Part shown: in pieces, positions 20,610 through 56,128 of the stretch
Numbering within the stretch: the stretch's first letter is position 1
Layout of the letters: each line of letters starts with the position of its first letter
Source: an uncultured Spirochaetota bacterium
GTDB lineage: Bacteria > Spirochaetota > Spirochaetia > SZUA-6 > Fen-1364
Assembly (NCBI GenBank): GCA_963734545.1
Contig: CAVTHO010000003.1
Coordinates: forward strand, 1-64,000
Direction of reading: 5' to 3'
DNA length: 64,000 nt
The notes under the pieces: generated by a model
Databases searched by the model: none
The model's input: only the letters and a program-made list of their open reading frames with translations
Told to the model about the DNA's origin: nothing
Translations under genes and position numbers: made by a program

Positions 20610-22427
20610 GCCGAGGCGTCCCCGGGCGGCCGGCTCTGCGCCGCGGTATCCCGCGGCGCAGACTCCGCGTTTCGGATCGCGTACGAGTATCCCTGCTCGC
20701 AGAGGAAGAGCTGCCGCTTCAGGGCGAACTCCTGCTCCACCGTGTCGCGCGAGACCAGGGAATAGAAGAAGGCCTGGTTCCCCGCTCCTTGGGACGCAGC
20801 ACCCGCCCCAGCCGCTGCGCCTCCTCCTGCCGGGAGCCGAAGGTGCCGGACACCTGGATGGCGAGGCTCGCCTCGGGCAGGTCGACGGCGAAGTTCGCCA
20901 CCTTGGACACCGCGAGGATCCGGATCGCTTCCCGCCTTGAAGTCCGCGTACAGCCCGTCACGGACGCGCTGCGGCGTGGAGCCCGTGATGACCGGCAGGC
21001 CGAGGGGCGCGCGCTATTGCGGCGAGCTGGTCCAGGTACATGCCGATGACCAGCGCCGGCTCACCGGGGTGCGCGTCGAGGATGGCCTTCACCAGGTCGA
21101 TCTTGGCGGGGTTCTCCGATGCCATGCGGAACTTCGTGCGCGCGTCCGCCACGGCGTAGCTCGTCCGCATGTGCGCGGGCAGCGGGCACGCGGATCTCCG
21201 TGCACACCGCCTTCGCGATCCAGCCCTGCTTCTCCATCTCCTTCCACGGGCACGTCGTATTTCTTGGGGCCGATGAGGGCGAAGACGTCGTCCTCCTTGC
21301 CGTCCTCCCGCACCAGGGTGGCGGTGAGGCCGAGCCGCCGCCGCGCCTGCAGGGACGCGGTGATCTGGAAGACGGGAGCCGGGAGGAGGTGGACCTCGTC
21401 ATAGACGATCAGGCCCCAGTCTCTCTCGTCCGAAGAGCGCGAGGTGCGGGATACCGCATGCGTCCTCCCCGGCCCCGGATCCCGTCCGCGTGTCCGGGCC
21501 GCGCAGACGGTCCCCTGTGGGTGAGCATCTGGTAGGTGGACACGGTGACGGGGCGCACCTCCTTCTTCTGCCCCGTGTACTCCCCGATCAGGTCCGGGTC
21601 GATGTCGGTCTTGTCGATCAGCTCCGCGATCCACTGGCGCACCGCGGTGACGCACGTGGTGAGCACGAGCGTGGAGGTCTGCAGGAGGTCCATGCAGAGC
21701 ATGCCCACGATGGTCTTGCCCGCCCCGCAGGGCAGGACGATCACGCCGGATCCGCCCCGCTCGCTCCCACCCGCGTGAAACGCGTCCGCCGCGTCGCGCT
21801 GGTAGGCGCGCGGAGCGAAGGGCCTGTTCCGCGGAGGAAGTCGCGGGCCGCAGGGAGAAGCCGAAAGCCTCGCCGGCCGCGTAGCCCGCCTGGTCGTCCA
21901 CGGGGTAGCCGATGCGGATCAGCGCGAGCTTGAGCCGTCCGCGGGACTGCGGGCGCCACGGCGAAGCTCGTGTCCGAGACCCGCTCCCCGAGCAGGAGCG
22001 CCGCGTGCCTGTCGGCGGCCACGAGCTCCGCCAGGCCCTCGATCCCGGCAGCCGCAGGACGAGCCGCGCGTCTCCTCCCTGTGAAGCGTCAGGCTGCCGA
22101 ACCGGGCCGCGTAGTCCTCGATCTCGAAGGCGATGTGCTCGGGCACGGGGTACCGGGACAGGGAGCGCAGCGATTCGACGATCTCCTCGGCTTTCTCACC
22201 CGCCGCGCACGCGTTCCAGATGGAGAGCGGCGTGATGCGGTACGTGTGCACGTGCTCGGGAGATTTCACGAGCTCCGCGAACCGGGCAAGGGCATCGCGG
22301 GCCTCCGCGTAGCGCGGGCTTGCCACCTCGGCAAGGATCGTGCGGTCACCCTGGACGATGAGGGGGCCGGCTCGCGGCCGCCCTGTTCGGTGGTATCTGC
22401 GCGGCCGCTGTATTCGGTGGCTCCCAT
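20606..22427 (-). CDS. XPB/Ssl2/Rad25-like DNA helicase; multiple apparent frameshifts
   Basis: IVQGDRTILAEV, KSPEHVHTYRITPLSIWNA, VLPCGAGKT, DEVH, GLTAT, VSKVANFAVDLPEA, QRLGRVLRPK. Confidence 0.93.
20635..20662 (+). repeat. Palindromic element copy within the last codons of XPB
   Basis: TCTGCGCCGCGG-TATC-CCGCGGCGCAGA, perfect 12-bp stem. Confidence 0.7.
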
Positions 22428-22619
22428 GGGTGGATCAGCAGTATTGTTTGTCATGATGAAAGGCTCGAAAAGGATAGTGAGTGCCGGAATAAGGGTCAAG
22501 GGATCAGGAATGTGTTTACGTTTGAATGAATCGAAAACGAAAGCCAATATTATCTATTGACAACAAACGATAGAATAATGTAAGAAATAGCAGTCAAAAG
22601 TAGAAAACGGAGGAAAGAA

Positions 22620-23582
22620 TTGAGCGAGCTGCATCTGAAGCCTGCAACCAGGCCCACCATGTACTTCATCGGGGTTTCCACCACCAGGTCGATGATCATG
22701 CGCGTGTTTCCCGCGTGGGCGCGTCACCTGGAGCTCGGAGACTGCCAGCTCAAGGGAATAGACCTGAAGCAGCACGACCTTGTCGAACGCTACAGGCAGG
22801 TCGTCGGGTTCATCAAGTCAGACCCCTTGTCCCTGGGCGCGCTGGTGACAACGCACAAGATCGACCTGCTGCGCGCCGGCAGGGACCTGTTCGACGAGCT
22901 GGACGACTTCGGCGCGGAGATGGGCGAGGTGAGCTCGATCTCGAAAAAAGACGGCCGGCTCTGCGGCGGGGCCAAGGACCCGATCTCGAGCGCGCTCGCC
23001 CTGGAGGCCTTTCTCCCGTCCCAGCACTGGGAAACCAGCGGCGCCCAGGCTTTCCTCATGGGGGCGGGAGGCTCGAGTGTCGCCCTGTGCTCGTACCTGG
23101 CCCGGCCGGAGCACGAGGAAAACCGGCCTTCGAAGATCTTCGTCTCCAATCGAAGCCCGGCGCGCCTGAAGGAGATGGAGGAAATTCATCGTCGGCAGTC
23201 GATGGACGTTCCCATCGCCTACGTTCTCACTCCCCGTCCCGGGGACAATGACGCGGTGATGCGCGGGCTCGCTCCCGGCTCCCTGGTGGTCAACGCAACC
23301 GGCCTGGGCAAGGACGCACCGGGCTCGCCGATCACGGATGACGCGCCATTCCCCGCGCAGGGCATGGCATGGGACTTCAACTATCGGGGAGACCTCGTTT
23401 TTCTCCGGCAGGCGCGAAGCCAGGCAGAGTCCCGCACCCTGCGCGTGGAGGACGGCTGGCTGTACTTCATCTACGGGTGGCTCCTGGTCATCGGGGAGGT
23501 ATTCCACCGCGACATTCCCTTCATGGGGCCGGCCTTCGATGAGCTCTGCCGGATCGCAGAGAAGGAAAAGGGCCGGGATTGA
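22620..23582 (+). CDS. Divergent shikimate-dehydrogenase-like protein
   Basis: GALVTTHKID, GAGG, SNRS, VVNATGLG, WDFNY, EDGW; TTG start with GGAGG RBS. Confidence 0.8.
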   Translation: MSELHLKPATRPTMYFIGVSTTRSMIMRVFPAWARHLELGDCQLKGIDLKQHDLVERYRQVVGFIKSDPLSLGALVTTHKIDLLRAGRDLFDELDDFGAEMGEVSSISKKDGRLCGGAKDPISSALALEAFLPSQHWETSGAQAFLMGAGGSSVALCSYLARPEHEENRPSKIFVSNRSPARLKEMEEIHRRQSMDVPIAYVLTPRPGDNDAVMRGLAPGSLVVNATGLGKDAPGSPITDDAPFPAQGMAWDFNYRGDLVFLRQARSQAESRTLRVEDGWLYFIYGWLLVIGEVFHRDIPFMGPAFDELCRIAEKEKGRD

Positions 23583-23644
23583 AACGCGCGCAGGACCGCG
23601 CGCGGGCGCTTGCGCGAGAGGGGCTGATTCGATCAAATAGGGCG

Positions 23645-24305
23645 ATGCAAATCGGCGCCCTCATCCTCGACATGGACGGCGTTCTCGCCGACACGGAACC
23701 CCTGCACGTCAGCGCGTGGGATCTCGCTCTCCAGGGAATTCCGAGCGCCGAAACGGGCGCCGCGCCCACGGCCGCGGCTCTCCGCGCGGAGCGGGTGAGA
23801 ATGACGGGCATGTCCACCCCGGAGATCGCGGAAGAAATGGTGCGCGTGTTCCGGCTGGCGGTCACGACGGAAGAGCTCCTGGACAGAAAGAGACGGATCT
23901 TCCGCACGATGGTGAACGGCGAGCTGACGGCATTCCCCGGTCTTCGCGAGGAGCTGGCCCGGTGGAAGGAGTGCCCGCTCGCGCTGGCCACTTCCAGCGC
24001 CCGTTTCGAGGCCGCGCTGATACTGGATCACCTTGGGTTTCGCGGCTTCTTTGATCCGGTGATCACCTGCGACGACGTGCCGAAGGCGAAACCCGCGCCG
24101 GATTGCTACCTGCTCGCCGCCGACAGGCTGGGCAAACGCCCCGAGGAGTGCGTGGTAATAGAGGATTCCGCGCACGGCATCACGGCCGCCCGTGATGCCG
24201 GGCATGCGGGTGCTTGCCGTGTCTCCGAAGGCGCCCGGCTCGATAGAAGGGGTGCTGGGGGTCTTCCCGTCGACGGTGGGGGCGCTGAAATGGCTCAGGA
24301 GCTGA
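23645..24305 (+). CDS. HAD-family phosphatase (beta-PGM-like); one extra base near 24200
   Basis: DMDGVLADT, ATSS, KPAPD, IEDS..G; corrected frame ends GMRVLAV...LKWLRS-TGA. Confidence 0.88.
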
Positions 24306-24814
24306 TCCGGATCAGACCGGCGCGCACGGCGGACCTGCCGCGAATCCTTTCGATCTACAATCACGAGGTCCTCTTCTCCACGGCTACCTACGACACGCAG
24401 CAGAGGACCGGCGAGGAGCATGAGCAGTGGTTCGCCCGCCATGACGCCGCGCATCCGGTGCTGGTCGCGGCCGCGGCCGCGCGGAATTCGGCGGAGTCTG
24501 AGCAGGCAGTGTGCGGATGGGCGTCCCTCAGCCGCTGGTCCGACCGGCCCGCGTATGATCAGTCCGTGGAGGTGTCGGTCTACGTGGCCGAGGAGCACAG
24601 GGGGAAGGGCATCGGGAGGCAGCTCCTGCAGGCTCTTGTGGAGGCAGGGCGCGCGCAGGGCCACCACGCGCTCCTTGGCCGCATTTCTTCCGACAATGCG
24701 GTGAGCATACGACTGCACGAATCCCTCGGCTTCTCCGTCGTCGGTGTCTTGAAGGAAGTCGGGTTCAAGTTCGGCCGCTGGCTCGACGTTTCCATCATGG
24801 AGCTCCTGCTGTAA
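24290..24814 (+). CDS. GNAT N-acetyltransferase (YncA/phosphinothricin acetyltransferase family)
   Basis: IYNHEV, EVSVYV, RGKGIG, SIRLHESLGF, VGFKFGRWLD. Confidence 0.92.
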   Translation: MAQELIRIRPARTADLPRILSIYNHEVLFSTATYDTQQRTGEEHEQWFARHDAAHPVLVAAAAARNSAESEQAVCGWASLSRWSDRPAYDQSVEVSVYVAEEHRGKGIGRQLLQALVEAGRAQGHHALLGRISSDNAVSIRLHESLGFSVVGVLKEVGFKFGRWLDVSIMELLL

Positions 24815-25885
24815 TCCGGGCAAAAGGATCGAACTCGTATTCCCCGGCAAGACCCTCTTCCGCCGGGCGTCCGCTCCGTGCAACCGTGATGCCGAACTGC
24901 CGGCAGATGGCGCCGTGCGTGAGCTCGGCAAGCGTTTCCTCTTCTGCCCCTGTTTCACGCAGCATCCGTACGAACCGGGGATAGAACGGCAGGCCCGGAA
25001 CACCGGACGCGAATCCCTCCGTCTTGTCCCTGCGCGTGTGCGGCGCGTGATCCGTCTCGATCCAGTCGATCCCGCCGTCCAGCAGCCGGCTGCAGCATGA
25101 GCGCCGGCAGGGGCTTCGGCCGCAGGGGAGGATTGACCTTCAGCAGGAGCCCGTCCTCGTCTTCCATCATTGCCGCATCCAGAAGGGCATGATGCGGGGT
25201 GAGGCCGCAGGTGACGCGCAGCCCCGGCGCGGCCGCGTCCGGCCCGGCTCCCGGCGGCGCGCCCGCGGCGTGCGCGTTTCGCAGGAGGTCGACCGCCCAC
25301 GGCGTGGAGATGTGGCAGACATGGAGCGTGCCGCGGAAGGACGCCGCCGCGGCCAGCCTCATCTGGTCGTCCACCGAGGCCACCTCCGCGGCAGGGGGCC
25401 GCGCACGCGCATGGCTCGCGGGCCGGGCAGGGTCCCAGACCTCCGCCCGCATGAGCGTCTCCTTCTCGCAGTGCACGGCGAGCACGCCCGTGTATCCCAG
25501 CGCGGCGAGTGTCCGGTAGACAACAGCCTGCGCTTCCATGCCGTTGATGCCCATGTTGCCCGTGGATTGCCCGGCGAACATCTTCAGGCCGACAACGCGG
25601 GGGAAGAGCTCCTCCCAGGCACGCACCGCTTCCTCGATCTGCCGGGGGACCGGTGTGACGCCGGCATACAGCCCGTGGAAAATGCTGATCCCCAGGCTCG
25701 TTCACGGCGGCGTCCGCGTCGTCGATGCGGCGCAGGATCGCCTCGCGGGAGGTGAGCGGGGGGTCGGTGTTGGGCATCTCGAAAACGCCGTCCAGCCCGG
25801 CGCGGTAGGCAACCCCCAGGCCGTGCCGCAGGGTTTCCTTGGCTGCCTGTTTCCAGTCCCGGAGGTGGACGTGCGGGTCGATCAT
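24795..25885 (-). CDS. pyrC: Dihydroorotase; frameshifted
   Basis: IDPHVHLRD, EMPNTDPP, HCE, HVCHIST, TPHH, KVNPPLR, TDHAPH; directly downstream of pyrBI. Confidence 0.9.
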
Positions 25886-25888
25886 CCG

Positions 25889-27407: not shown

Positions 27408-27425
27408 GAGCTCCGCTCCTTTCCA

Positions 27426-28178: not shown

Positions 28179-28193
28179 CGGACGTGCCCCCCT

Positions 28194-29396: not shown

Positions 29397-29431
29397 CGGC
29401 GCCAAATCCGCGGGATACCGCGGCGCCTCTG
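29394..29431 (-). repeat. Palindromic element copy abutting a start codon
   Basis: Minus strand: CAGAGGCG-CCGCGG-TATC-CCGCGG-ATTTGGCGCCG-ATG. Confidence 0.75.
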
Positions 29432-29448
29432 ACGGGCAGGGCCCACCG

Positions 29449-30459: not shown

Positions 30460-30484
30460 GCGTGCCCTCCTTGGTCTTTTTTCT

Positions 30485-30513
30485 ACAATAGGGGAGGGGG
30501 ACGGAAAAGTCAA
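30485..30513 (-). promoter_or_regulatory. sigma70-type promoter
   Basis: Minus strand TTGACT-17 nt-TATTGT, then AAGGAGG RBS. Confidence 0.65.
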
Positions 30514-30515
30514 CG

Positions 30516-30535
30516 CGCCACGGTACTCCGTGGCG
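30516..30535 (+). repeat. Palindromic element copy (intergenic)
   Basis: CGCCACGG-TACT-CCGTGGCG, 8-bp stem. Confidence 0.75.
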
Positions 30536-30595
30536 ATCGCTAGCGGCCACGTTACTTCCGCGTCCCGGCGGCATTCGCGGCCGGGGTCGCGGAGA

Positions 30596-31270: not shown

Positions 31271-31351
31271 TGTACATCGCCTCCCGAGGTACAATATCGT
31301 CAAACCACGGGCGGCGAGCAAGCTTTTCCGGGCGTCCTCCTGCTCCTCTCC

Positions 31352-32413: not shown

Positions 32414-32449
32414 CCTCCGCCGCCCTATACCGCACCGCCCTGCAAGTTC

Positions 32450-39365: not shown

Positions 39366-41110
39366 ATGACCCGTGAAGACCGGGCATCGAGTGCCGGGGA
39401 GACCGGCGGGAAGGGCACCGGGAGCGACCAGGTCAAGCCGCACCAGCGGCTGCTCAGGAGCAAGGGCTTCATCCCCACGGTGGTCGTCGTTGCCCTCGCA
39501 GCGTTCGTCCTGCTCAGCCCGCGGATGGCGGGAAGCCCGCCCCGCCTGGAATCCATCACTCCGACACGGGGGAAGCCGGGTGACGTCATGATCGTCACCG
39601 GTCACAACTTCGGGCAGCACCGCGATACCTCGGAGGTCCGGATTTCCGGCGTCTCTCCGACCTCCACCGACTACGGGGAATGGACCGACACGCGCATCAG
39701 CGTCACCATTCCCGACGAGGCCGCCTCCGGGATCGTCTACGTCATCACGAAGAGCGGCCGCAGCAGCGGCCTTCTGTTCATCAACCAGGGCGACATCCCG
39801 CTGCCCGCGTCGGGCTCCGCTCGCCCGGGAGACCCGTATATCGTCAACAACAGCGACAATCCGATCCAGCCCTCGGCGGCGCGGGTCGGGGACACGATCA
39901 CGATCTACGGAATGAACTTCGGCCTCGAGAAGGGCACCTCGGAGGTGTACTTCACGTGGGCCGGCCAGCAGTCTCCGTCCAGCGGAAGCCTCGACCTCTC
40001 GAATCTCCTTCCCGCGCGGGACTACAACCTGGACTACATTTCCTGGTCGGACCGCGAGATCAAGCTGCGCGTGCCCGACGGCGCCGCCTCCGGGAACGTG
40101 CTGGTCACGTCGGACAAGGGCAGGAGCAATGCCGCCTATTTCGTCGTGAACAAGGGGCCGGCACGAAGACTTTCACCTCTCTCCGGAAGTATTCGATCCA
40201 GTACGCCATGGACGTCGCGGTCACCGCCGCATCGGGAGACAACACTCTCTACCTCTGGATGCCGCGCATCCTGCCGACGCCCGAGCAGCGGAAGATCGAA
40301 ACGGTGGACCAGGACCCGCAGCCGCTGCTGGACACGAGCAGCTCCGCGCTGTACTCCTTCTCCAATCTGCAGAAGGGCGGGAAGTACAAGGTCACCTTGA
40401 GCTGGATGTTCGATCGCTACGCCGTCGAGACACAGGTGAACCCGGCGGACGTGCCGCCCTATGACACGACATCGGAGCTGTACGGCAGGTTCACCGCGCC
40501 GGACTGCGCTGGTGCCCTCGACGAGCCCCGAGATCGTCAAGGCCGCGGCCGCGGCGGCAGGCGGGGAGAAGAATCCCTGGCTCAAGGCACGCAGGATCTA
40601 CGACTGGCTTCTCACCCAGTTCAAGTACTGCCCCGTCCACCGAGGACCCGATGCACAGCGCTGCGCTCTGAAACGGGCGACGCGTTCGTCTACTCGTCGC
40701 TGTACTGCGCGCTGCTGCGGGCGGCGGGCATCCCCGCGCGCATGGTGTCGGGGTACCTCGTCGGGGACTCCGGCGCAGCCGACCCGCCGCCACTTCTGGG
40801 ACGAGTTCTACGTGGAGACCCTCGGGTGGGTGCCCGTCGACCCGCTCCTCGGCGACGAGAAGTCCCTCGTGCCGACGCCGCCGCCCGAGGATTTCGACGC
40901 GCAAGGCGTACTATTTCGGGAACCTCGACAACCAGCACATCACGTTCACGAAGGGACTCGAGGAGGTGAACCAGATGAATCCCGCGGGCACGAGCGCGAG
41001 GATCCACGCGGACCTCCCCTACCTGCTCACGCATCCACGAGGAGGCGGTGGGCGGGCCTGACCTCGTACACGACGAGCTTCGAGGACCTGCGGTCACCGG
41101 GACCTATTAG
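39366..41110 (+). CDS. Membrane-anchored protein with two IPT/TIG domains and a transglutaminase-like domain; frameshifted
   Basis: G.NFG...W(T/S)D..I...P..A.SG twice; ALLRAAGIPAR, HFWDEFY, GWVPVDP. Confidence 0.85.
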
Positions 41111-41115
41111 CGCAC

Positions 41116-41194
41116 GCGGTACTAACGGACCCCGCGGCGAGCGAGCGCCTTCCGTCGAGCGGTACTCCGCAGCCTGGCGACTAGCGGTACTCGC
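41116..41194 (+). repeat. Cluster of three GCGGTACT motifs (one full GCGG-TACT-CCGC hairpin) between convergent genes
   Basis: GCGGTACT at 41116, 41159 and 41184. Confidence 0.65.
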
Positions 41195-41205
41195 ACGGTC
41201 AGCTC

Positions 41206-42442
41206 TTACTGCTGGGACGCGGCCTTGCGCCGCGCGCGCTCGATCTTCTCCATCTTGCTGTAGTACTCGGACTGCTTCTGGATCTCCTCCACGTCCGTCG
41301 GTGGCGATCTTGTTGTCGGCGAGGACCATCTTCTTGTTCTCGAAGAGCTTCCGGATGTACGGGGTTGCCCTTGTCGCTGGAGAGCCCCACGGTGTTCAGC
41401 AGCTCCTTGGGGCCGAGCTGGAAGGTGTACTTCGCTGCCGGCGACGATGGGGATGCGGTTCTTCTCCAGCTGCAGGAGCAGGGCGTCATAGAGCCTGCCC
41501 AGCGGGTCCTGGATGAGGGTGTTGGCGAGCTGCTTGTAGATGAACCACAGCCGCTCGGCGAGGAGCGTGGTGAGCCGGGTGATCAGCTGGGGCTGGCTCT
41601 GCACCATGCGCTCGAAGTTCGCCTTGTTCACGGCCATGAGGCTGCAGTCCTCGTTGGCGATGGCGGAGGCCGAGCGCGGCTTGTTCTCCAGCAGGGCCAT
41701 CTCGCCGAAGATGTCCCCGGTCTTCAGCATGGCGAGCAGCACCTCGTTGTCCTCCACGATCTTGGTGATCTTCACGACGCCCCGCTGGATGATGTACAGC
41801 TCCGTGCCCGGCTCGTTCTCGCTGAAGATCATCGTGTTCTTCGGGTAGGTGCGGGTGAAGTCGTCCGTGCACCTTGTCCAGGTACACCGCCTTGGCGTAG
41901 GGATGGATCTTGGCCATGCGCTCCTTGGCCTTGTCCGCGTTCGGATCCGTGGGGCAGTACTGGAGGAAGCGGTAGTAGGCGTAGTAGGCCTGGTTGTACT
42001 GGCTCTGCCGCGCGTAGTACTCGGCCACCTTGAACAGGTGCGACGGGTCGCCGCTGGCCGTGTTCTTGAAGGTGAGGCGCGTGAGCGCCTCGTCGAGGAA
42101 GCGCATCTTGCGGGAGAAACTCTGGATGATCTTCAGCGCCACGGGGGCGTTGCGCTCGATGAGCAGGCCGTACTGCTCGCGGGCCACGGAGATCAGCGAG
42201 ACGTCGGTGAGGGCGAGGGCGGTCTCGATGTGGCTGTGCGAGGACATGGTGGAGATGACGCCGAAGAAGTCGCCGGGAGCGAGGGTGTTTCCGCCCTCCT
42301 CCTCGACGACCTCCACTTCCTTGCTGATGCGCACCTTGCCGCTGCGGAGGATGTAGAAGTAGTCGGCCTTCTGCTTTCCCTCCACGATGATGTACGAGTT
42401 CTTGTTGAAGTTGACGATCGACAGTTGAAGCGGGCTGGCCAT
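41206..42442 (-). CDS. Cyclic-nucleotide-binding protein (two cNMP domains around a TPR-like segment, Crp-like C-terminus); frameshifted
   Basis: YILRSGKVRI..GDFFG and YIIQRGVVKI..GDIFGEMALLENKPRSASA. Confidence 0.88.
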
Positions 42443-42528
42443 TCTTTTTACCGTCTCACCAGGCTACCAGTATAGAGATCGGTTTTTCCGTTGTCAATGT
42501 GAAGAGACGGGGATCGTGCCGCGCAACC

Positions 42529-42568
42529 CTGCGGGGTACCGCTCGGAAAGACGCACGGAGTACCGTGC
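42529..42568 (-). repeat. Two tandem palindromic element copies
   Basis: Minus strand GCACGG-TACT-CCGTGC (42553-42568) and GAGCGG-TACC-CCGCAG (42529-42544). Confidence 0.7.
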
Positions 42569-42612
42569 CAGCCGTAGCCACCAAACCGACCGTTTGGTAT
42601 AGTGGGGCACTT

Positions 42613-43203: not shown

Positions 43204-44231
43204 GGCTTCGGCTGAACCGGTCCGTCAAGCTCGGCCTCGAGCTCGTCCTTCTCGGCCTCCTGGTCGTCCTTTTCGTGAAAGTGCTCGATTTCCGGCAGGT
43301 ACAGGCCTATATCCGACTGATCACGCCGCGCGTGCTCCTCGGCGTCCTGGCATTCCAGCTCGCGATCCTGCTCATCCAGAGCTTCCAGTGGGGCCTGGTC
43401 CTGCGGGAAGCCGGCATCTATCGCGGCGCCTGGTGGACAATGCGGTCCCGGGTGAGCGGGGCCGCGCTCACCTACCTCACCCCTTCCATGTATTTCGGCG
43501 GCGAGCCGGTCAGGGCGGGCATGTACAAGAACGGCGGCATGACCTATCAGAAGGTCTACGCCACGATTGCCCTGGACAAGTACATCGAGCTGGCGGGCAA
43601 GATCCCCTGCATCATCGTGGGATTCAGCGCGCTCGTCTACTTCGTGCATCGGGGCACCCTCCTCATCATTCTGTCCGGGAGCATTCTCGTGGCGTTCATC
43701 GGGTTCTTCATCTTTCTCATCGCGAAGCTGTTCAACAGCGAGACATTCATCGTCGGCTTCTTCAAGAGGTTTCTACGGCTGGTTGCCCGCATCAACCCCC
43801 GCGCCGCCGTGAGGGTGCTGAAGGCCATCCGGGAGTTCGCGCGGGACGTGCACACGCTCATGGGCCGCAGGAGGATTTTCTACGCGGCAATGGCGGCCGG
43901 AGTGACGGTTGCCGTCGTGGAAGTGCTCCAGACATTCTACATCCTTTTTGTGCTGGGACGCACCAGCATCGCCGACTCATTCGTCATCTTCGCGACGGTG
44001 GTCATCCAGGGGCTCATCGGGCTCCTGCCGGGAAACATCGGCGGCATGGAGGGCACGCACCTGTTCATCTTCGCCGTGCTCGGCATCGGGTCCGACCCGA
44101 GCATCGTCTACACGTTGATCTTGCGCATGGGGCAGATGACGATGGTGCTGCTGGGACTGCTGAGCCTTTTGGCCTGGAGGATAGGCAGGGTGGGCGTGAG
44201 AGGCGCCGATCGGAATCGAACCGATGCATAA
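43200..44231 (+). CDS. Lysylphosphatidylglycerol-synthase TM-region (flippase-like) membrane protein
   Basis: TPS..GGEPVRA, DK..E, PGNIGGME; multiple TM helices. Confidence 0.88.
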   Translation: MRLRLNRSVKLGLELVLLGLLVVLFVKVLDFRQVQAYIRLITPRVLLGVLAFQLAILLIQSFQWGLVLREAGIYRGAWWTMRSRVSGAALTYLTPSMYFGGEPVRAGMYKNGGMTYQKVYATIALDKYIELAGKIPCIIVGFSALVYFVHRGTLLIILSGSILVAFIGFFIFLIAKLFNSETFIVGFFKRFLRLVARINPRAAVRVLKAIREFARDVHTLMGRRRIFYAAMAAGVTVAVVEVLQTFYILFVLGRTSIADSFVIFATVVIQGLIGLLPGNIGGMEGTHLFIFAVLGIGSDPSIVYTLILRMGQMTMVLLGLLSLLAWRIGRVGVRGADRNRTDA

Positions 44232-44272
44232 AGGTTTTGCAGACCTCTCCCTTACCTCTTGGGTACGGCGCC
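44201..44272 (-). tRNA. tRNA-Cys (GCA), CCA not encoded
   Basis: GGCGCCG/CGGCGCC acceptor stem, GAGGT-CTGCAAA-ACCTT anticodon arm, ATCGG-TTCGATT-CCGAT T-arm, U discriminator. Confidence 0.96.
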
Positions 44273-44322: not shown

Positions 44323-44360
44323 CAGAGCGCCGCCGTACCCGGAGGATTTGGCGCCGCATG
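44323..44360 (+). repeat. Palindromic element copy that contains the RBS of the GT2 gene
   Basis: CAGAGCG-CCGCCG-TACC-CGGAGG-ATTTGGCGCCGC-ATG; closely matches the 29394-29431 copy. Confidence 0.7.
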
Positions 44361-46471: not shown

Positions 46472-47356
46472 AGGCCGCTCTCCCCGGCCGCGGGCTCGGG
46501 CGGTCCACCAGGGTCCGCGCGAGCACCGTGAACGTCATCGCGGTCTACCTCGTCCTGACTTTTGGCGCCCTGGCATGCATCGTGCCGTTCCTTTTCATGC
46601 TGAGCACATCCCTGAAGACCATCGGGGAGACGATCACCCGTGTCAGCCCCATTCCCTTTGACCCGGAGTTCTGGCCCCGTACTCCCCAGTGGATCAACTT
46701 TGTCACTGCCTGGTCGGACGCGAGCTTCAGCCTCTATTTCAGAAACAGCGTCATCACCGCGGCGCTGACGGTGGCGGGAGTAGTCGCGAGCTCTTCTCTC
46801 GCCGCCTATGCTTTCGCCAAGATCCGATTCGTCGGTTCCCGGTTCATTTTCGCCGTGCTGCTGGCGACCCTGATCATCCCCGAGAGCGTGTACCTCATCC
46901 CCAATTTCATCATGATCACCCGTCTGGGCTGGTACGACACGCTCGCGGGTCTGACCGTACCCTTCATGGCGAGCGCATTCTACATTTTCCTTCTGCGGCA
47001 GTTCTTCTCCCAGGTGCCCAACGAGCTGCTGGAGAGCGCGCGCATCGACGGCGCCGGTCATACGCGGGCCTTCTCTTCCATCCTGCTCCCCCTTTCCGGC
47101 GCGCCTTTGTTCACCGTGGCATTTCTGGCCTTCGTTGGATCGTGGAACTCTCTTCAGTGGCCGCTCGTGGCCACCCGCACGGCCCGATGGCGGCCGATCA
47201 CCGTCGGGCTGACCACCTTCATCTCTGAGGCAGGCCCCCAGAACGAGCTGCGCATGGCAGGGGCCGTGCTGGCCGTTCTGCCCGGTCGTGCTTGTCTACT
47301 TCTTCGCGCAGAAGCGATTTACCGAGGCTATCGCCCGCAGTGGCATCAAGGGCTGA
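46468..47356 (+). CDS. Carbohydrate ABC transporter permease; frameshift near 47283
   Basis: YFRNS, AAYAFAK, FLLRQFF, ELLESARIDGA, WNSLQWPL. Confidence 0.93.
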
Positions 47357-47390
47357 TATCCATTACTTTTGACATTGCAATGGAGGGAAT

Positions 47391-48722
47391 ATGAGGCGGG
47401 CAATCGTGTGCGTGTTCCTCCTCGTTCTGCCGCTTGTCCTGTTCGGCCAGGGCAACGGGCTGTCGGGGGACAAATCCGCGGAGTACCGCGGCGCGGATCC
47501 GACGGGAACGACGATCACCTACTGGTACCAGCATACAGGGGCCAACGGCGATGCCATGCAGAAAATGATCGCCGACTTCAACGCAACCAATCCGTGGAAG
47601 ATCACCGTGAAGGGCGAGTACGCGGGGCCCTACGACCAGATCTACAACAAGATGGTCGCTGCAATCGCGGCCGGCAACCCGCCCGAGCTCGTGGTGGCGT
47701 ACCAGAACCAGTCCGCCACCTACCAGGTGAACAATGCGCTGGTGGACCTGAATGTCTACGTCACGGATCCGAAGTGGGGACTCGGAAAAGATATCGCCGA
47801 TTTCTTCGAGGGCTTCATCAACCAGGACGTGAACGCACAGTTCGGCGGCAAGCGCCTGGGCTTCCCGCCCAACCGCTCTCTCGAGGTCATGTACTGGAAT
47901 ATGACGCTGCTGAAATCCGTCGGAATCACCGCCCCGCCGAAGACGTGGGACGAGTTTGCCGCTGACTGCCGGAAGGTCACGAACAAGGACAAGGACACGT
48001 ACGGTTACGCGCTGGACAACCTGGATGCATCGCACGTCTACGCCCTCGTCATCTCCCGCGGCGGAGAGTTCGCCCGGGCCGACGGGAAAGGCTACACTCT
48101 GAACACGCCGCAGATGAAGGCATCCATGACCTACATGCGCGGGCTCGTCAATCAGGGCCTCGCGCGCAAGATCCCGAAGAAGTACGACGATCAGACGGAC
48201 TTCGGAAACGGGAAAGCGGCCTTCACTCTCAGCTCCACATCAGGGCTCACCTTCTACGACAAGGCCGTCAAGGCGAACAAGGACGGGCCGTTCCAATGGG
48301 GAATCGCGCCCGTGCCCCAGCTCACCGCCTCCGGCGCGCCCGCTATCGACCTCTACGGCGCCAGCGTGAGTATCCCGAAGAGCACTCCACAGAAGCAGCT
48401 CGCTGCCTGGCTCTTCATCAAGTGGTTCTCCGAGCCCCAGCAGCAGGCCCAGTGGGCCCACGTATCGAAGTATTTCCCTGTCCGCAAGGCGGCAGAGAAG
48501 CTCATGGCCGACCTGTTCGACGCGGATGCGAATTTCGCCGCCGCCTGGAAAATCCTGAAGATCGCCAACCTCAAGGCGGAGCCCCCTTTCGCCGGCTATG
48601 ACCTTGTCCGGGATGCCATCACCGCCGCGTACAGCAAGGTGCTGGACGGCGCGGACGTGGATTTGACACTTGCGGCGCTGCAGGAGCAGGCGGACAAGCT
48701 CTACAAGGATTCGGCGCCCTGA
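47391..48722 (+). CDS. ABC transporter substrate-binding protein (CUT1/UgpB-like)
   Basis: Signal peptide, ITYWYQH, PKTWDE, AAWLFIKWF. Confidence 0.92.
   Translation: MRRAIVCVFLLVLPLVLFGQGNGLSGDKSAEYRGADPTGTTITYWYQHTGANGDAMQKMIADFNATNPWKITVKGEYAGPYDQIYNKMVAAIAAGNPPELVVAYQNQSATYQVNNALVDLNVYVTDPKWGLGKDIADFFEGFINQDVNAQFGGKRLGFPPNRSLEVMYWNMTLLKSVGITAPPKTWDEFAADCRKVTNKDKDTYGYALDNLDASHVYALVISRGGEFARADGKGYTLNTPQMKASMTYMRGLVNQGLARKIPKKYDDQTDFGNGKAAFTLSSTSGLTFYDKAVKANKDGPFQWGIAPVPQLTASGAPAIDLYGASVSIPKSTPQKQLAAWLFIKWFSEPQQQAQWAHVSKYFPVRKAAEKLMADLFDADANFAAAWKILKIANLKAEPPFAGYDLVRDAITAAYSKVLDGADVDLTLAALQEQADKLYKDSAP
47466..47494 (-). repeat. Full palindromic element copy in-frame inside the binding-protein CDS
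   Basis: Minus strand GCG-CCGCGG-TACT-CCGCGG-ATTTGTCCCC; read on the plus strand as GDKSAEYRGA. Confidence 0.75.
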
Positions 48723-48736
48723 GGAATAGTTTTTCA

Positions 48737-48765
48737 TTGACAAAGTAGGCCCAGTGTCTTAAAAT
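48737..48765 (+). promoter_or_regulatory. Near-consensus sigma70 promoter
   Basis: TTGACA-17 nt-TAAAAT; AAGGAG RBS before ATG 48851. Confidence 0.75.
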
Positions 48766-48850
48766 CTCCAGAAGCTCATTTATATAAAGTTGCCTGGCAA
48801 ACCGGGCCATCTGACAAGATATGTCTATCGGAAATGTGAAAGGAGAATAT

Positions 48851-50823: not shown

Positions 50824-51880
50824 CGATAGCGGATGAGTAGTTGACGGAGGCCGTTCGCCTACGAGGGATGCAGACGACGGGAACGGCGAGCAAAACTTGT
50901 GGAGGGAAGTATGAAAACAAAACTGCTTGTATTGTTCGGGCTTGCTTCGTTGATTGTTGTTCTTCTTCTGGCAGCCTGCCCCAATCCGATCGTACCCGGC
51001 AAGGGCGGTGTGTTGACCATCTCCATCAACAACAACATCGACGAGAGGACCCTGCTGCCTCCGATCGACATGGACGCGGACAGCTTCTCGGTGATCGGCA
51101 CAGGCCCCGGCGGGGCCGACTTCTCCCAGACTACTACCGGGGCCCCCGTAACGGTGAGTGGGCTTGCCTTCGGCTCCTGGAGCGTGACGGTGAATGCGCT
51201 CAATGCCGGGGGCACCATCATCGGCAGCGGTCAGGCAACAGTGACCGTGCATACCGGGCAGACCACGACAGCAACTATCTCCGTGGTGCCTCTGGAGGGA
51301 AACGGCACACTGGACCTCACCGTGACCTGGACCGCTTCGCAGGTGGATGAGGCATCGATCGAGGCGAGCCTGACGCCTCCCTCAGGCCCCGAGACGCCCC
51401 TGGGCTTCGGGGTCACAGGCAACGTGGCAACCTATTCCAGCACGACCATACCGGCCGGCTACCAGACGCTGACGGTGCAGCTGCTGGACAACGGCATCCC
51501 CGTGATGGGAGCGGTGGAGGTGGTGAGGATCGTGGCAGGGCAGACGACCACGGGAGCATACGAATTCGAGAACGTGAACAGGCCGGGCGGCTCGGTGCAG
51601 GTGCACATCACTCCCTGAGATGGCAGAGCCGATACCGGTGAGCATCAGCGGGGTGCCGCCAACAGTGAGTGCGGGCGCGGAGCATGACAGCCACGGCGTC
51701 GGTGAGCGACGGGACGACGGGCGTTGTCTACGTGTGGTACCTGAACGGTGTGAGCGTGGGCACGGGAGCCAGCTACACGCTGGGGGGCACAGTTCCCGCG
51801 GGCTGGTATCGGCTTGACGTGACAGCCTACGCGGCGGGCGGGACCCGGGCGGGCAGTGACACCGCCAGCTTCCAGGTGAC
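48908..51880 (+). repeat. Direct duplication of ~915 bp (48908-49823 and 50965-51880), offset 2057 bp
   Basis: Near-identical DNA from CTTCTGGCAGCCTGCCCCAATCCG to TTCCAGGTGAC in both copies. Confidence 0.95.
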
Positions 51881-52895
51881 CGGGACGGCCAATGCGCATA
51901 CCTACCTCTATGTGGCGAACGCGGCCTCCAACTCCATTTCAGTCCTTGAAATCGGGAGCACGGGAGCGCTGACCATGATGAGCGGCTCTCCCTATATGGC
52001 GGGAACGGCACCCGAGTCCCTTGCCGTGGATCCGACCGGTAAGTTCCTGTTTGCAGCGAATCGCAATTCCCACAATATATCGGCTTACACGATCGGGAGC
52101 GCAGGGGCGCTGACTCTGGTGAGCGGCTCCCCATTCGCCGCGGGACTGTATCCTCAGTGCGTTGCGGTGGATCGGACCGGCAAGTTTCTCTACGCGGCCA
52201 ACTCCTCTTCCGGCAGCATCTCGGCATATTCGATCGGAAGCACGGGAGCGTTGACGCCGCTCAGCGGCTCCCCGTTTGCCACGGGACCAGGATCAGTTTC
52301 TCTTGTTATCGATCCGACCGGCAGGTTCCTTTATGTGACCAGCGCAAATGCAGTGTCGGGATACTCGATAGGAAGCGCGGGCGGGCTTACGCCGCTGAGT
52401 GGTTCCCCCTTTCCCGCATCTGGAGGACCCAATGCCATTACGATCGATCCGACCGGCAAGTTCCTCTACGCAACACACGCTTCATTGAACAATGTGTCGG
52501 CATACGCCATAGGACCCGAGGGCGGGCTCACGCCGGTGAGCGGATCTCCATTTGCCGCGGGAGCGAACCCATTTTCAGTCGCCGTGGATCCGACAGGCAG
52601 GTTCGTGTATGTAGCAAATCTCAACTCGGCCACTGTATCGGCCTATTCGATAGGAAGCTCGGGAGCGCTCACGGAAGTGAGCGGTTCTCCTTTTGCGTCG
52701 GGCACGACCCCGGTTTTTGTCAGGGCGGATCCATCCGGCAGGTTCCTCTACGTTGCCACTGCAGGTGCCAACTATACCGTATCAGCCTTTACAATCGGAA
52801 GCACGGGAGGGCTCACGGCGATTAGCGGATCCCCGTTCTATTCTGGCTACTCTCCCTTTGCCCTGGCCTTTGTGACAATGATGAGCGCACCCTAG
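50911..52895 (+). CDS. Lipoprotein B: same stalk as A plus a different 7-bladed beta-propeller; frameshifts near 51616 and 51678
   Basis: LLAA-C lipobox; repeats FLY.AN..S..ISAYSIGS.GALT.VSGSPFA.G..P..VAVDPTG(K/R). Confidence 0.87.
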
Positions 52896-52929
52896 GCGCG
52901 GGCGGCCTTCCTGGAGGTAACGATAACAT

Positions 52930-52959
52930 TTGACAAGATACCGGTAATGGACTAATAAT
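52930..52959 (+). promoter_or_regulatory. sigma70-type promoter for the small zinc-ribbon gene
   Basis: TTGACA-17 nt-TAATAAT. Confidence 0.5.
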
Positions 52960-52986
52960 CGAACGTACGTTTTTTGGGAGGGAAAA

Positions 52987-53157
52987 ATGGAGAAAGTGCA
53001 GAAGAGTGAGGGGCTCGTCTGCATATGCGCGGAATGCAAGAAAGTGATCAAGATGGTCGGAAACGTGTCTCCCGCTGTGCCGCCGCTCATCAGCCACGGC
53101 ATCTGTCCTGCGTGCGCAGAGAGGCTGTACGGGGACTATTTCCGCAAGAAAACGTGA
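52987..53157 (+). CDS. 56-aa stand-alone zinc-ribbon protein (absent from the ORF track)
   Basis: MEKVQKSEGLVCICAECKKVIKMVGNVSPAVPPLISHGICPACAERLYGDYFRKKT; GGAGG RBS. Confidence 0.85.
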   Translation: MEKVQKSEGLVCICAECKKVIKMVGNVSPAVPPLISHGICPACAERLYGDYFRKKT

Positions 53158-53170
53158 GAACGGGCGCCGC

Positions 53171-54301
53171 TCAGACCACCTTGCGCGGCAGGAGCGGGCT
53201 GATTCTGCTCACGATTTCGTAGTTGATGGTGCCTGACCATTCCGCCATCGTCTCGGCACTGATCTGCTCTTCTCCCGATCTGCCGAGGAGCACCACCTCG
53301 TCCTCGAGGCGCGCACCGGGAACGTCCGTCAGGTCCACCATGCACAGGTTCATGCAGATCCGGCCGATGACGGGCGCGCGGCGCCCCCGCACCAGGACGT
53401 GCGCCCTGTTGCCCAGCGCGCGATCGTACCCGTCGGAGTACCCGATCGGCAGGACGCCGAGGACGGTGGGGCGCATCGTGCGGTAGGAGCAGCCATATCC
53501 GACATAGCTCCCTTCAGGTATCGTCTTCACCTGCACGATTCGCGTCTTCCAGGAAAGGACGGGCCGGAAGTCCGGCACCGCCCCGCCCTTCTCCCGGGCG
53601 GACACCATCGTCTCCCGGGAGGGCCACAGGCCGTAGAGCCCGATTCCCGAGCGCAGCATGGTGAAGTGGGTCGATGTGAACAGGACCGCGGCGGCCGTGC
53701 ACGCCGTGTGGACGAACGGGGGGCGCCCGATGAGCCGATCCACTGCCGCCATGGCGGCGTTGAATCGCTCGATCTGCATTTCCGCGTACTCGTGGTTCAG
53801 CGTGTCCTCGATGTTGGCATAGTGGGTGGAGACCCCTTCCAGGGTGACGCCGCGCGCGTTCTTGACCAGGCTGAGAAAAGCCTCCAGGTCCTCCGGCAGC
53901 ACGCCCTGGCGCGCCGTGCCGGTGTCCACCTTCACGTGCACCCGCGCGGCCCTGGCCGCGCTCTTGCGCGAGGAGAGCTTTTCGATCGTCTCCCGGTTGT
54001 AGACGGTCAGGCTGAGATCAGCCTCGACCGCTGCCTCGAGGTCCGCGAGTGGAACGTGCCCCAGAAGGATGATCGGCCGGGTGATGCCGCTGGAGCGCAG
54101 CTGCAGCCCTTCCTCCAGGGAGTTGACCCCGAACCACTCCGCGGAAGGCAGGAGGGGGGCGATCTGGGCAACGCCGTGACCGTAGGCGTTCGACTTGACG
54201 ACCGCGCAGGCAAGAACTCCGGGGCGGCTTCCGGCACGAAGCTGCCGAAGATTGTGCTCAGGCGCCTTCCCGTCCAGTTCCACCCAGACGAGGCTGCTCA
54301 T
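53171..54301 (-). CDS. alr: Alanine racemase
   Basis: AVVKSNAYGHG, KVDTG, GIGLYG, GYSDGY, GRICMN, TINYE. Confidence 0.96.
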   Translation of the reverse strand: MSSLVWVELDGKAPEHNLRQLRAGSRPGVLACAVVKSNAYGHGVAQIAPLLPSAEWFGVNSLEEGLQLRSSGITRPIILLGHVPLADLEAAVEADLSLTVYNRETIEKLSSRKSAARAARVHVKVDTGTARQGVLPEDLEAFLSLVKNARGVTLEGVSTHYANIEDTLNHEYAEMQIERFNAAMAAVDRLIGRPPFVHTACTAAAVLFTSTHFTMLRSGIGLYGLWPSRETMVSAREKGGAVPDFRPVLSWKTRIVQVKTIPEGSYVGYGCSYRTMRPTVLGVLPIGYSDGYDRALGNRAHVLVRGRRAPVIGRICMNLCMVDLTDVPGARLEDEVVLLGRSGEEQISAETMAEWSGTINYEIVSRISPLLPRKVV

Positions 54302-54391
54302 TGCTGCTCCTTTGCGTGGCAGGATAGTATGGGGCGGCCGCGCGAGTCAAAGGCAGGAGCGCAACCGGACTCACGACCGAGGGAGCGCATC

Positions 54392-55232
54392 ATGGACGCC
54401 AGATCATTCTACGACAGTCTGGGAAGCGACTATGACCGCATGGTTTCCTGGCAGACACGGCTTGCGAGGGAGGAGGCCTTCTTTCAGCGTCTCTTCGAGG
54501 AGAACGGGGTCCGGCGCGTCCTGGATGCCGCCTGCGGCACGGGTATGCATGCCATCGAGTTCGCGCGGCAGGGACTGCGCAGCGCCGGCGCGGACCTGAG
54601 TCCCGCCCTGATCGCCCAGGCCCGGGAGAACGCGGCCGCGGCCGGGGTCGAGGTGGACCTGCAGGCAGCGGCATTCGGCGAGCTGGCGAGCCGGTTCACG
54701 GGTCCGTTCGACGCGGTCACGTGCCTGGGCAATTCTCTTCCGCACCTCGTCGACGATTCCAGTCTTGCGTCGGCCCTGTCGGACTTCGCATCCCTTCTAC
54801 GCCCGGGCGGTGTGCTCGTCATCCAGAACAGGAACTACGACCGGCTCCTTCGGGATCGACAGCGGTTCATGCCCCCTGCCGCGCGGGAGGACAGCGAAGG
54901 GGAGACCCTGTTTCTCCGAATCACGGACTTTCCGCCTCCGGCGGAAAGCGCAAGCGAATCCATCGAGTTCACGATCGTCACTCTGAAGAAGCGGGGCGGC
55001 GCCTGGAATCAGACGGTGCGCACAACACCCCTGCGGGCAATCCGCCGCGTGACCCTCGAACGGGCGCTGGGCGCTGCCGGTTTTTCCTCCGTCGAGGTGT
55101 ACGGCAGCTTTGCCCTCACAGCGTTCGACGCCGCTGATGCCGGGGACCTGGTCGTCGATCGCCAGAAAGCAGCCCGTCCCGGTTCCGCGCGCCTCTACAC
55201 CCACTTCTCGGAGAGCACCGCCCCGTCGCTGA
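54392..55232 (+). CDS. Class I SAM-dependent methyltransferase (glycine/sarcosine N-MTase-like); 3' end uncertain, frameshift near 55155
   Basis: VLDAACGTG, GADLS, FDAVTCLGNSLPHL, LRPGG, RNYD. Confidence 0.88.
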
Positions 55233-56030
55233 TCGAGACGATCGCCGCCTTGAGAGGTATCTTCCGACCCGCTTTCTCGACCGCCTGCTGGGCCATGGCG
55301 AGCAGACCGCGGCAGCAGGGCACCTCCATCATGACGACGGTGAGAGTGTTGATCTGCGCGTGGTCGATGAGCGCGGTGAGCTTCTCGCGGTAGATCTCCT
55401 TTCCCTCGTCGAGCTTCGGGCAGGCTATCGCCAGGGACTTGCCCTTCAGGAGGGACGCATGGAAGCCTCCCATGGCGTACGCGACGCAGTCCGCGCTCAG
55501 CAGCACGTCTTTCCCCTTGAACTGCGGAGCCATCGGCGAGAGGAGGTGCAGCTGGATGGGCCAGTTCTCCAGCGCGGAGGACCCCGCGGCGGGCTCGGCC
55601 TCTGTGCGCGCGCTCCGCCGGGGAAGGACACGCTCTGTCTTCCGGGGCAGCCGGCGGGCGCCTCATGAACGGCTTCTTCGGGAACAGGGATGTTGTGCTC
55701 TTTCATATAGTCACGCGCCTCCTTCAGCAGCTCTTTCTCCCCATGACCTTCGAGGTGCGCCAGGTGCGCCCGGATCGTGTTGGCGCCCTGCCGCGCGATG
55801 TTGGCCATCACCTTCCGCTCGTCGTAAGGCTCGGCTTCCCTTTCCACCAGCGTGATGGCCCCCTCCGGGCAGTAGCCCACGCAGGCGCCGAGGCCGTCGC
55901 AGAACAGGTCGCTTATCAGCCGCGCCTTTCCGTCGATGACCTGGAGGGCCCCTTCGGGGCAGTTGGGGATGCACAGGCCGCAGCCGTTGCACTTTTCCTC
56001 GTCGATGGTGATGATCGTGCGTGTGCTCAT
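55195..56030 (-). CDS. 4Fe-4S ferredoxin-domain protein with Cys-rich C-terminal domain; frameshifted
   Basis: CNGCGLCIPNCP, CDGLGACVGYCP, GCPG, NWPIQL, ADC, ACPKLD, MEVPCC. Confidence 0.9.
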
Positions 56031-56062
56031 GGTGTCAGTCTACACCGGCCGCGCATTGCCGC

Positions 56063-56078
56063 CTTGACGTGGATCAAG
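56063..56078. promoter_or_regulatory. Crp/Fnr-type binding box
   Basis: cTTGAC-GTGG-ATCAAg (FNR consensus TTGAT-N4-ATCAA), centred about 41 bp upstream of the Fe-S gene ATG; TAGACT -10 box at 56037-56042 (minus). Confidence 0.75.
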
Positions 56079-56079
56079 T

Positions 56080-56128
56080 CGCCACGGTATCCGTGGATTT
56101 GTCCCCGCCACGGTATTCCGTGGATTTG
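56080..56128 (+). repeat. Two tandem palindromic element copies
   Basis: CGCCACGG-TAT-CCGTGG-ATTTGTCCC then CGCCACGG-TATT-CCGTGG-ATTTG. Confidence 0.8.

Follow-up and report, generated by a model that had tools for sequence, protein, structure and literature searches.

The 64,000-nucleotide (nt) stretch analysed here (hereafter the window) spans positions 1–64000 of contig C3 in G000, the draft genome of an uncultured peat spirochaete (5.14 Mb, 63% G+C, 10 contigs, 89% complete), and carries copies of a short hairpin repeat that we term S. In this genome S occurs together with a second repeat, the double hairpin D, which is found nested inside hairpin loops, including those of S. S is a unit of 24–25 nt with the consensus GCG-CCRCGG-TAYY-CCGYGG-ATTYG, as derived from position frequencies and an alignment of 120 copies, and D is a 28-nt unit, CGGSG-TAYT-CSCCG-A-ACGGG-TACT-CCCG. 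The reading we favour, at about even confidence, is that S and D are selfish micro-elements akin to repetitive extragenic palindromic (REP) sequences, and that they would spread by loop-directed cutting and joining through a putative dedicated activity.

The 10-nt core of S, CGGTAYYCCG, was found 10 times in the window against 0.51 expected, and none of 100 shuffles reached 10; two of these matches (21447 and 22146) lie in coding DNA and are probably due to chance. Genome-wide there are 316 matches, compared to ~48–82 in third-order Markov simulations, and the hairpin family proposed in an initial annotation of the window is borne out. When the perfect hairpins of the G+C-rich G000 that combine a 6-bp stem with a 4-nt loop are all ranked by loop, TACT comes first, and TACC, TATT and the complements of these loops all fall within the top 17 loop types. 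The loop of S is conserved while its stems vary. When copies were picked on the core alone, without selecting for pairing, the three pairs outside the core were Watson–Crick in 133, 131 and 118 of 199 unique copies (75, 96 and 62 in shuffles, with maxima of 95, 111 and 84), alternating between G-C and A-T at one stem pair and between C-G and G-C at another. In the 120 copies, drawn from several genomes, two-sided changes occupied 38 cells compared to 8.6 in shuffles, with 0 of 500 reaching 38, although these counts mirror a few subfamily founding events rather than many independent ones, the copies being related. Structure rather than exact sequence is thus conserved, as first suggested from the window by eye. 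The arms fall into subfamilies (CCGCGG, CCACGG, TCGCGG, GCGCGG with a ATTTCTTC tail, GCACGG, and TCCGCGG with a GTTGGA tail), and the flanking positions give GCG on the 5' side and ATTY on the 3' side; the GTAG and CGTC tetranucleotides of known REPs are missing, again as noted at the outset.

A covariance model trained on the 120 copies returned at least 149 matches in G000 at E ≤ 1 (150 of 6225 candidates were scored). With filters off it found 10 window sites at E < 0.05, nine of which are family members; eight of the nine were training rows and match by construction, while 56079–56103 was not. The tenth site, 40536–40557, has no TAYY loop, and we rejected it along with the weak matches at 11455 and 60084 as plain CCGCGG palindromes lacking the loop.

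For the second element, the D pattern has 56 copies in G000 at up to four substitutions and the reversed pattern has none, and the D stems show compensatory variants. Six S hairpins have apparent loops of 34 nt that consist of TA, a D unit and TAYY, with D forward in four and reversed in two; two further S hairpins carry deeper nesting, and eight D copies themselves hold a further D-like insert in the second loop, after the TA of that loop. The arms of the hairpins hosting D vary (CCACGG, CCGCGG, CCGCCG, TCACGG, GCGCGG). In two arrays a D-filled unit lies beside D-empty units, and at one of these the orthologue in the sister genome G014 is also without D. Filled and empty units differ by exactly 30 nt, with TA on both sides; TA flanks D on both sides in 27 of the 56 G000 copies, and tandem D copies in G006 and G020 have a period of 30. 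The species distributions of the two elements differ: D occurs without canonical S (6–19 matches) in G003, G006, G008, G018 and G020, and is missing from the S-bearing G001, G011, G017 and G019. In G006 a third hairpin (SCGCGC-GAAG-CGCGS) often precedes D and TCCGGTAGACG follows it, which suggests a larger composite repeat containing D in that genome. Two other origins for D were considered and set aside. A long autonomous element with D-like ends was rejected, as solo half-site matches look like chance occurrences in coding DNA. D is also not explained as a GTAC-to-GTAC restriction fragment: GTAC is ordinary in G000 (13,370 sites, observed/expected 0.92), yet D sits mainly in hairpin loops. 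As a separate property of this genome, CTAG is strongly avoided (813 sites against 3875 expected, observed/expected 0.21) and CAGCTG has a ratio of 0.41, while GTAC and CCGCGG are not unusual.

Across genomes, S is restricted to one genus of uncultured Spirochaetia among those searched. A strict 19-nt S pattern matched 71 times in G000 and occurred in 12 of 20 other species of the genus (up to 80 matches each), the remaining eight being without canonical S; it was not found in 20 genomes that represent other genera within the family and order, and its reversed control gave 0 in every genome. A 16-nt pattern applied to 400 other genomes across the phylum matched once in each of four, compared to 96 matches in G000. 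When one genome per bacterial and archaeal species was searched with a two-unit pattern, 63 stretches were recovered, 62 of them in nine metagenome-assembled genomes (MAGs) with titles reading Spirochaetia, Spirochaetota or Spirochaetaceae, in agreement with the spirochaete host proposed initially. The remaining stretch, a 7-unit S array in an Acidobacteriota-titled MAG, has a neighbouring gene 70% identical over 1.1 kb to G000:C8, and its contig is probably a mis-binned spirochaete contig. In the literature searched, we found no description of the S family or of bacterial hairpin elements nested in loops; the RepRanger survey covers three other Spirochaetota only.

Within the window, about ten hairpins had been listed at first, and the sequences described are present at every site. 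Single-stranded folding recovered the claimed stem, 4-nt loop and stem at 20635–20662, 29402–29426, 30516–30535, 42528–42571, 47466–47494 and 56080–56128, with energies of -8 to -18 kcal/mol and z of -2.5 to -7.1; the sites at 42528–42571 and 56080–56128 form two hairpins each. The listing therefore stands for these good folders, while 41159–41170 (4-bp stem, z -2.1) and 44330–44352 (one stem mismatch, z -0.8) fold weakly, and 22404–22421 (z -2.1) does not belong to the family. This last site, on the plus strand and once taken for a degenerate copy, is a variable-length stretch within a conserved region (-3.4 kcal/mol); the covariance model has no match there even at E ≤ 10, and G014 and G002 show unrelated sequence or a 45-nt gap. 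The claim that ATTTG follows five copies was correct (29402, 44330, 47466 and both units at 56080). Four features had been overlooked: the arrangement of copies in head-to-tail arrays, their in-frame presence inside some genes, the mix of at least two subtypes and the nested D.

Among the canonical and near-canonical copies, that at 29401–29426 on the minus strand (GCG, CCGCGG, TATC, CCGCGG, ATTTGG; covariance model score 38.2 bits) occupies part of the 52 nt that separate two minus-strand genes, and its end is a few bases short of the downstream ATG. An S-type hairpin at 20635–20662 on the plus strand, a short way upstream of where a minus-strand gene starts, has a perfect 12-bp stem and a TATC loop but no ATT tail (-18.1 kcal/mol, z -7.1). 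At 30515–30540 on the plus strand, S has an 8-bp stem, CGCCACGG/CCGTGGCG, and a TACT loop (-10.6 kcal/mol, z -6.5), and is opposite in orientation to the flanking genes. The plus-strand variant at 44327–44352, with CCGCCG/CGGAGG arms (one mismatch) and an ATTTGG tail (16.8 bits), stops 5 nt before an ATG at 44358 and adjoins a minus-strand tRNA gene at 44201–44272 (Rfam, 63.7 bits), the only feature of the window to reach an Rfam gathering score; no Rfam family matched S. A canonical S on the minus strand at 47466–47494 (39 bits) sits inside a solute-binding protein gene (47412–48722) as an in-frame segment of 24 nt, which reads KSAEYRGA on the plus strand and falls between the signal peptide and the SBP_bac_8 domain (aa 51–376). 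At 56079–56130 on the plus strand, two head-to-tail S units with CCACGG arms (-13.1 kcal/mol, z -4.5; 24.0 and 34.2 bits) repeat with a period of 26–27 nt, the first having a 3-nt loop and both an ATTTG tail. The hairpins at 41159 and 42531/42553 represent not canonical S but a related two-hairpin subtype, which is rare in G000 (four pattern matches, control 0). The full form of this subtype is seen on the minus strand at 42528–42571, as GCACGG-TACT-CCGTGC, a linker GTCTTTCCGA and GCGG-TACC-CCGC (-12.1 kcal/mol, z -3.3). The composite and partly degenerate cluster at 41121–41215 on the plus strand (covariance model match 41154–41179, 20.5 bits) contains the short hairpin GCGG-TACT-CCGC at 41159–41170, preceded by TTCCGTCGA, which corresponds to the second half of this subtype.

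Comparison of orthologous loci, an approach already envisaged in the initial annotation, revealed empty and filled sites. The sister genomes used were G014 (~88–90% identity to G000) and G002 (~84%), and at four of the seven comparable window sites the element is missing from at least one of them. Site 20635 is filled in G000, empty in G014 and occupied by a different composite in G002; 29411 has a single copy in G000, a cluster in G014 and none in G002; 41160 is complex in G000, holds one canonical S in G014 and is absent from G002; and 47479 is present in G000 and G014, with exactly 24 nt missing in G002. The other three are occupied in all three genomes and vary in copy number or type: at 30521, G014 has a TACC loop at the same site and G002 further hairpins; at 42540, G014 has one degenerate hairpin and G002 four tandem units; and at 44340, the form in G014 is the paired one, CGGCGG, and additional copies that hold nested inserts are seen in G002. 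Outside the window a clean empty site was found, where G014 runs uninterrupted from CCAGC into GCTCAGG and G000 has three exact 24-nt units. This fixes the boundary of S to within 2 nt and leaves no longer duplication. In metagenomic contigs from wetland runs X3 and X4, position 42568 is followed, after 9 intervening letters, by 42532, so that the two-hairpin unit is duplicated in tandem there; the contigs from the four wetland runs are short and of low depth, some of their records show gaps of 24 and 48 letters near 47155–48353, and the presence or absence of S units is not readable from them.

S is often organised in tandem. Elements of G000 with a stem of at least 4 bp make up 259 clusters, of which 200 hold a single element, 44 are pairs, 12 triplets and 3 quadruplets, and neighbouring S copies share the same, head-to-tail orientation in 70 cases and are inverted in 7. 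Within arrays, periods of 24 (18 cases) and 25 (11 cases) predominate, and S units are often trailed by a partial 5' copy of themselves. Of 46 pairs of adjacent units, 40 share the loop variant (14.6 expected) and 42 the arm (9.3 expected), indicating that the arrays grow by local duplication. They hold no spacers, and CRISPR was rejected on that ground.

Placement relative to genes was assessed for 177 strong hairpins (stem of at least 6 bp). By crude codon-usage gene calls (85% coding, with some spurious open reading frames (ORFs) in the set), 117 are intergenic, against ~15% of the genome, so the family is enriched outside genes; 30 are deep inside ORFs, 25 are no more than 90 nt from an ORF end, and 5 straddle such an end. 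Besides the solute-binding protein gene of the window, 12 ORFs with an insert were scanned, and seven have Pfam domains on both sides of it. For example, an S copy separates the two MoCoBD domains in a molybdoenzyme and the M and C domains in a Mur ligase; others separate UPF0004 from radical SAM and one glyoxalase domain from a second. Further intragenic copies fall within a MacB periplasmic domain and within a match to ATP synthase gamma; the latter (G000:C1:83159-84052) contains a short tandem repeat with a GCCCGG-TACC-CCGGGC hairpin (reading ...PYLARYPGPYLARLPG...) inside the Pfam match. In a helicase-like ORF (G000:C8:518621-520216), S, D and S follow one another in-frame over 78 nt, compared to one unit in G014 and none in G002. 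At another locus, G000:C7:117720-121370, an ABC permease domain and a rhamnosidase share one open frame, with three S units between them; free of stops, this array may hide a gene boundary or make a fusion. The length of S (24 nt) is divisible by three, as is that of D with its TA (30 nt). In all six frames, stop codons are missing from 55 of the 66 strict S units and from 28 of the 29 D units; random stretches of the genome cut to these lengths are stop-free in 39% and 31% of cases. Because they have these two properties, S and D survive in protein linkers and tails as well as between genes.

We postulate that S is a non-autonomous selfish repeat of 24–25 nt, with a 6-bp G+C stem on a G-TAYY-C tetraloop and asymmetric 5' GCG and 3' ATTYG ends. 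S would reach new sites by insertion, with a junction ambiguity of at most 2 nt at the one clean empty site observed, and then expands or contracts locally by tandem duplication or by slippage between repeated arms, as the observed arrays and sister loci show. Its loops, together with similar loops elsewhere, would be the preferred landing sites of D, which on the evidence of the nested copies would integrate at the loop TA in either orientation, leave TA on both sides and offer its own loop for re-invasion. The catalyst would be a trans-acting activity that reads extruded or single-stranded G-TAYY-C hairpins and cuts and joins at TA, and it would be encoded elsewhere or lost from the draft genomes. 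Any consequences for the host, for instance hairpins in the mRNA of operon spacers or additional protein loops, would be by-products. Taking this further, no smaller transposable units than S (24 nt) and D (28 nt plus TA) may so far have come to light in a bacterial chromosome. A novel activity would read the G-TAYY-C loop of a hairpin and integrate DNA at the TA in it, and each insertion would create new targets in Russian-doll fashion; the two elements would be tuned for survival inside genes and would be the bacterial equivalent of the hairpin elements of mitochondria, the GC clusters and double hairpins. We advance this wider claim tentatively, at somewhat less than even confidence.

Candidate movers were sought among Y1 (PF01797), DDE_3 (PF13358), GIY-YIG (PF01541), TnpB-type, RVT_1 and serine recombinase families. 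The initial annotation had pictured a REP-like selfish or regulatory family whose mobiliser or binding protein would be encoded elsewhere, and had suggested looking for Y1 genes such as those of REP-associated tyrosine transposases (RAYTs); the dispersed hairpin family is there in form, but no Y1 gene flanked by S was found. G000 has a single PF01797 gene, of the IS200 type and lower in G+C, with flanking hairpins (CCACCGCC) unrelated to S. The element, at G000:C4:159480-160100, encodes a Y1_Tnp protein of ~140 aa between CCACCGCC-NNN-GGCGGTGG hairpins; it has relatives in G017, G011 and G008, and a second IS200 lineage is present in G014, G009, G015, G013 and G019. In all, 11 of the 20 other congeneric genomes have Y1_Tnp genes, which belong to these two lineages, are multi-copy in some genomes and carry their own end hairpins. 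No S hairpin lies within 1.5 kb of the five type-B Y1 loci, save one GGGGTACC in G013, and no S-flanked single-copy Y1 gene was found in G000 or the genus genomes. Y1 also does not track S: G002 (96% complete) lacks Y1 despite its 59 S copies, and G015 and G008 lack S despite having Y1. A RAYT/IS200 mobiliser for S was rejected on these grounds. An IS630-type DDE_3 transposase as the mover of D was likewise rejected for want of correlation across genomes, DDE_3 being present in the D-free G001, G011, G017 and G019. G000 has one large serine recombinase. Clustering of 1382 ORFs from 63 loci beside S arrays yielded no recurrent gene family, the largest cluster spanning 3 loci. Eight genes in G000 have elements on both sides, one of them in the window; the translations of the other seven, inspected by eye, look like EF-Tu, HAD-like, AraC-like, PAP2-like and other proteins or like spurious ORFs, and none has the look of a nuclease or transposase.

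Several results weigh against loop-directed movement by a dedicated activity. First, no enzyme emerged from the families searched, a negative that leaves other families unsearched and does not show absence in a genome of this completeness: DDE_3 is not found in the D-rich G000, G002, G012 and G020, G000 has no small GIY-YIG gene (its sole PF01541 match lies in a 618-aa ORF), and it has neither a TnpB-type nor an RVT_1 match. Second, replication-strand bias was not significant for S (p 0.23) or D (p 0.14), which argues against a lagging-strand mechanism of the IS200/IS605 style, with low power. Third, the left flank of D is GA and not TA in 13 of the 56 G000 copies (9 GA/TA, 3 GA/TC, 1 GA/CA), and in the S-less G006 and G020 the flanks of 20 copies are TA/TA in 11, GA/TA in 6, CA/TA in 1 and other in 2; simple TA duplication is therefore insufficient as an explanation. 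Fourth, one 'empty' S site in G002 retains a 9-nt left part of the unit, and this remnant fits loss by slippage as well as insertion. Lastly, the shared ancestry behind the covariation counts and the crude gene calls behind the intergenic figures are weaknesses on the same side.

The main rival holds that there is no dedicated enzyme, and that spread and nesting come about through host replication and repair, by slipped-strand mispairing, quasi-palindrome template switching and short-homology gene conversion carrying filled loops into empty ones. We consider it unlikely, but it draws support from the local homogeneity of the arrays, the partial 5' self-copies that often follow S units, the half unit left in G002 and the fact that G000 and G002, the genomes richest in S and D, are without a RAYT-like or DDE_3 gene, G000 also lacking a reverse transcriptase or TnpB match. 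It accounts less well for D. The arms of the hairpins hosting D differ, so that common homology amounts to only ~5–7 nt; both D orientations are found in the same kind of host loop; and in S-less genomes D lies in unrelated contexts and is still bounded by TA or by GA...TA. For S, the clean G014 site has just GC in common with the unit ends.

Alternatively, a host function could keep the hairpins, either as mRNA stabilisers or attenuators in operon spacers or as sites for a nucleoid or regulatory protein that reads G-TAYY-C, with spread being secondary. The constancy of the loop amid varying stems would suit such a role, as would the many copies in short operon spacers near start codons (29401–29426, 44327–44352 and 20635–20662 in the window) and the three window sites occupied in all three species. 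We nevertheless regard it as improbable, since co-directional flanking genes are matched in orientation by 34 copies and opposed by 57, copies lie in-frame inside enzymes, 8 of the 20 congeneric species manage without canonical S, and number and type vary between species even at occupied sites. Termination is no better a role: the S tail is ATTYG, with no T-run after the hairpin, and with the mixed orientation this led us to reject an intrinsic terminator. The last rival, a classical REP whose RAYT or IS200-family Y1 transposase is missing from the incomplete assemblies, is very improbable: S is a short G+C-rich palindrome of high copy number, Y1 genes do occur in the genus and repeated genes are often lost from MAGs, but S has no GTAG or CGTC tag, the Y1 genes are those of two ordinary IS200-type lineages with other end hairpins, their presence is uncoupled from S copy number (G002 versus G015 and G008), S doublets are direct and not inverted, and there is no strand bias.

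S thus looks and behaves like a REP but departs from REP–RAYT systems in three of their four defining features. It shares the short G+C-rich imperfect palindrome in high copy number and mainly extragenic position; the GTAG/CGTC tag, a single-copy Y1 gene flanked by the repeat, and the inverted doublet as unit were not found. PMC3733652 describes the REP, BIME and REPIN sequences of proteobacteria as GTAG- and CGTC-tagged superfamilies of 20–40-nt G+C-rich imperfect palindromes, mostly extragenic and present in hundreds of copies, with several subfamilies per genome, variation between related species and some intragenic copies, all of which recall S; according to the same paper the CGTC REPs, like S, have no known transposase. 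Unlike these, S has as its conserved part the G-TAYY-C loop and the 3' ATTYG, has head-to-tail neighbours and is itself a site where a second element lands. Rickettsia palindromic elements (RPE) are likewise palindromic selfish repeats tolerated in-frame in protein-coding genes, although they are several times longer and unrelated in sequence, and to our knowledge loop nesting has not been described for them. An RPE-1 copy in a coding gene is mentioned in PMC3733652.

The yeast mitochondrial G+C clusters and the double-hairpin and repetitive hairpin elements of fungal and sponge mitochondria, as portrayed in PMC4478555 and PMC2800124, resemble S and D: their units, single or double hairpins, are very short, they show short putative target duplications, occur in tandem arrays, can merge and now and then insert into genes, and no mechanism has been settled for them either. 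They reside in eukaryotic organelles and have other sequences and targets (AG in GC42), whereas S and D occupy a bacterial chromosome and D the TA of a hairpin loop. [quoted passage not shown] D resembles them in having TA on both sides of about half its copies and in occurring in both orientations, and differs in its 28-nt size, a terminal inverted repeat of only ~4 nt, its CGG(G)...CCCG ends and the lack of correlation with DDE_3; inverted repeats of sufficient length and a cognate DDE_3 gene were not found in G000, G002, G012 or G020. We know of no MITE that approaches so small a size and of no transposase whose substrate is this short. A reading as a PATE-like element of the IS200/IS605 kind finds resident insertion sequence ends that differ and no orientation bias, the latter at low power. 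The Ssn-NTS/SRM repeats, dispersed 20–50-nt hairpins with a protein that reads them as single-stranded DNA according to PMC11893778, are similar to S in that respect; an Ssn-type pairing with GIY-YIG was rejected for S, there being no small single-domain GIY-YIG gene in G000 and no recurrent array neighbour. In the literature searched, the nearest parallels are REPs that lack a transposase and, among mitochondrial elements, the GC clusters and double hairpins.

REP-type repeats are accounted for by RAYTs, yet the CGTC REPs and the organelle hairpin elements are without a known mover. The clade described here offers two co-resident families with independent species distributions and with precise filled and empty sites, and the TA of the tetraloop is a defined target that any proposed enzyme must account for. 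Loops of 8 and 10 codons are gained and lost in enzymes, transporters and helicases between close species, which bears on protein evolution and also on annotation, ORFs being fused through arrays. Short-read MAG assembly probably breaks at S and D arrays, which would explain part of the genome fragmentation. If the wider claim made above for S and D is true, they would provide a tractable route to the mechanism of the mitochondrial GC-cluster and double-hairpin elements.

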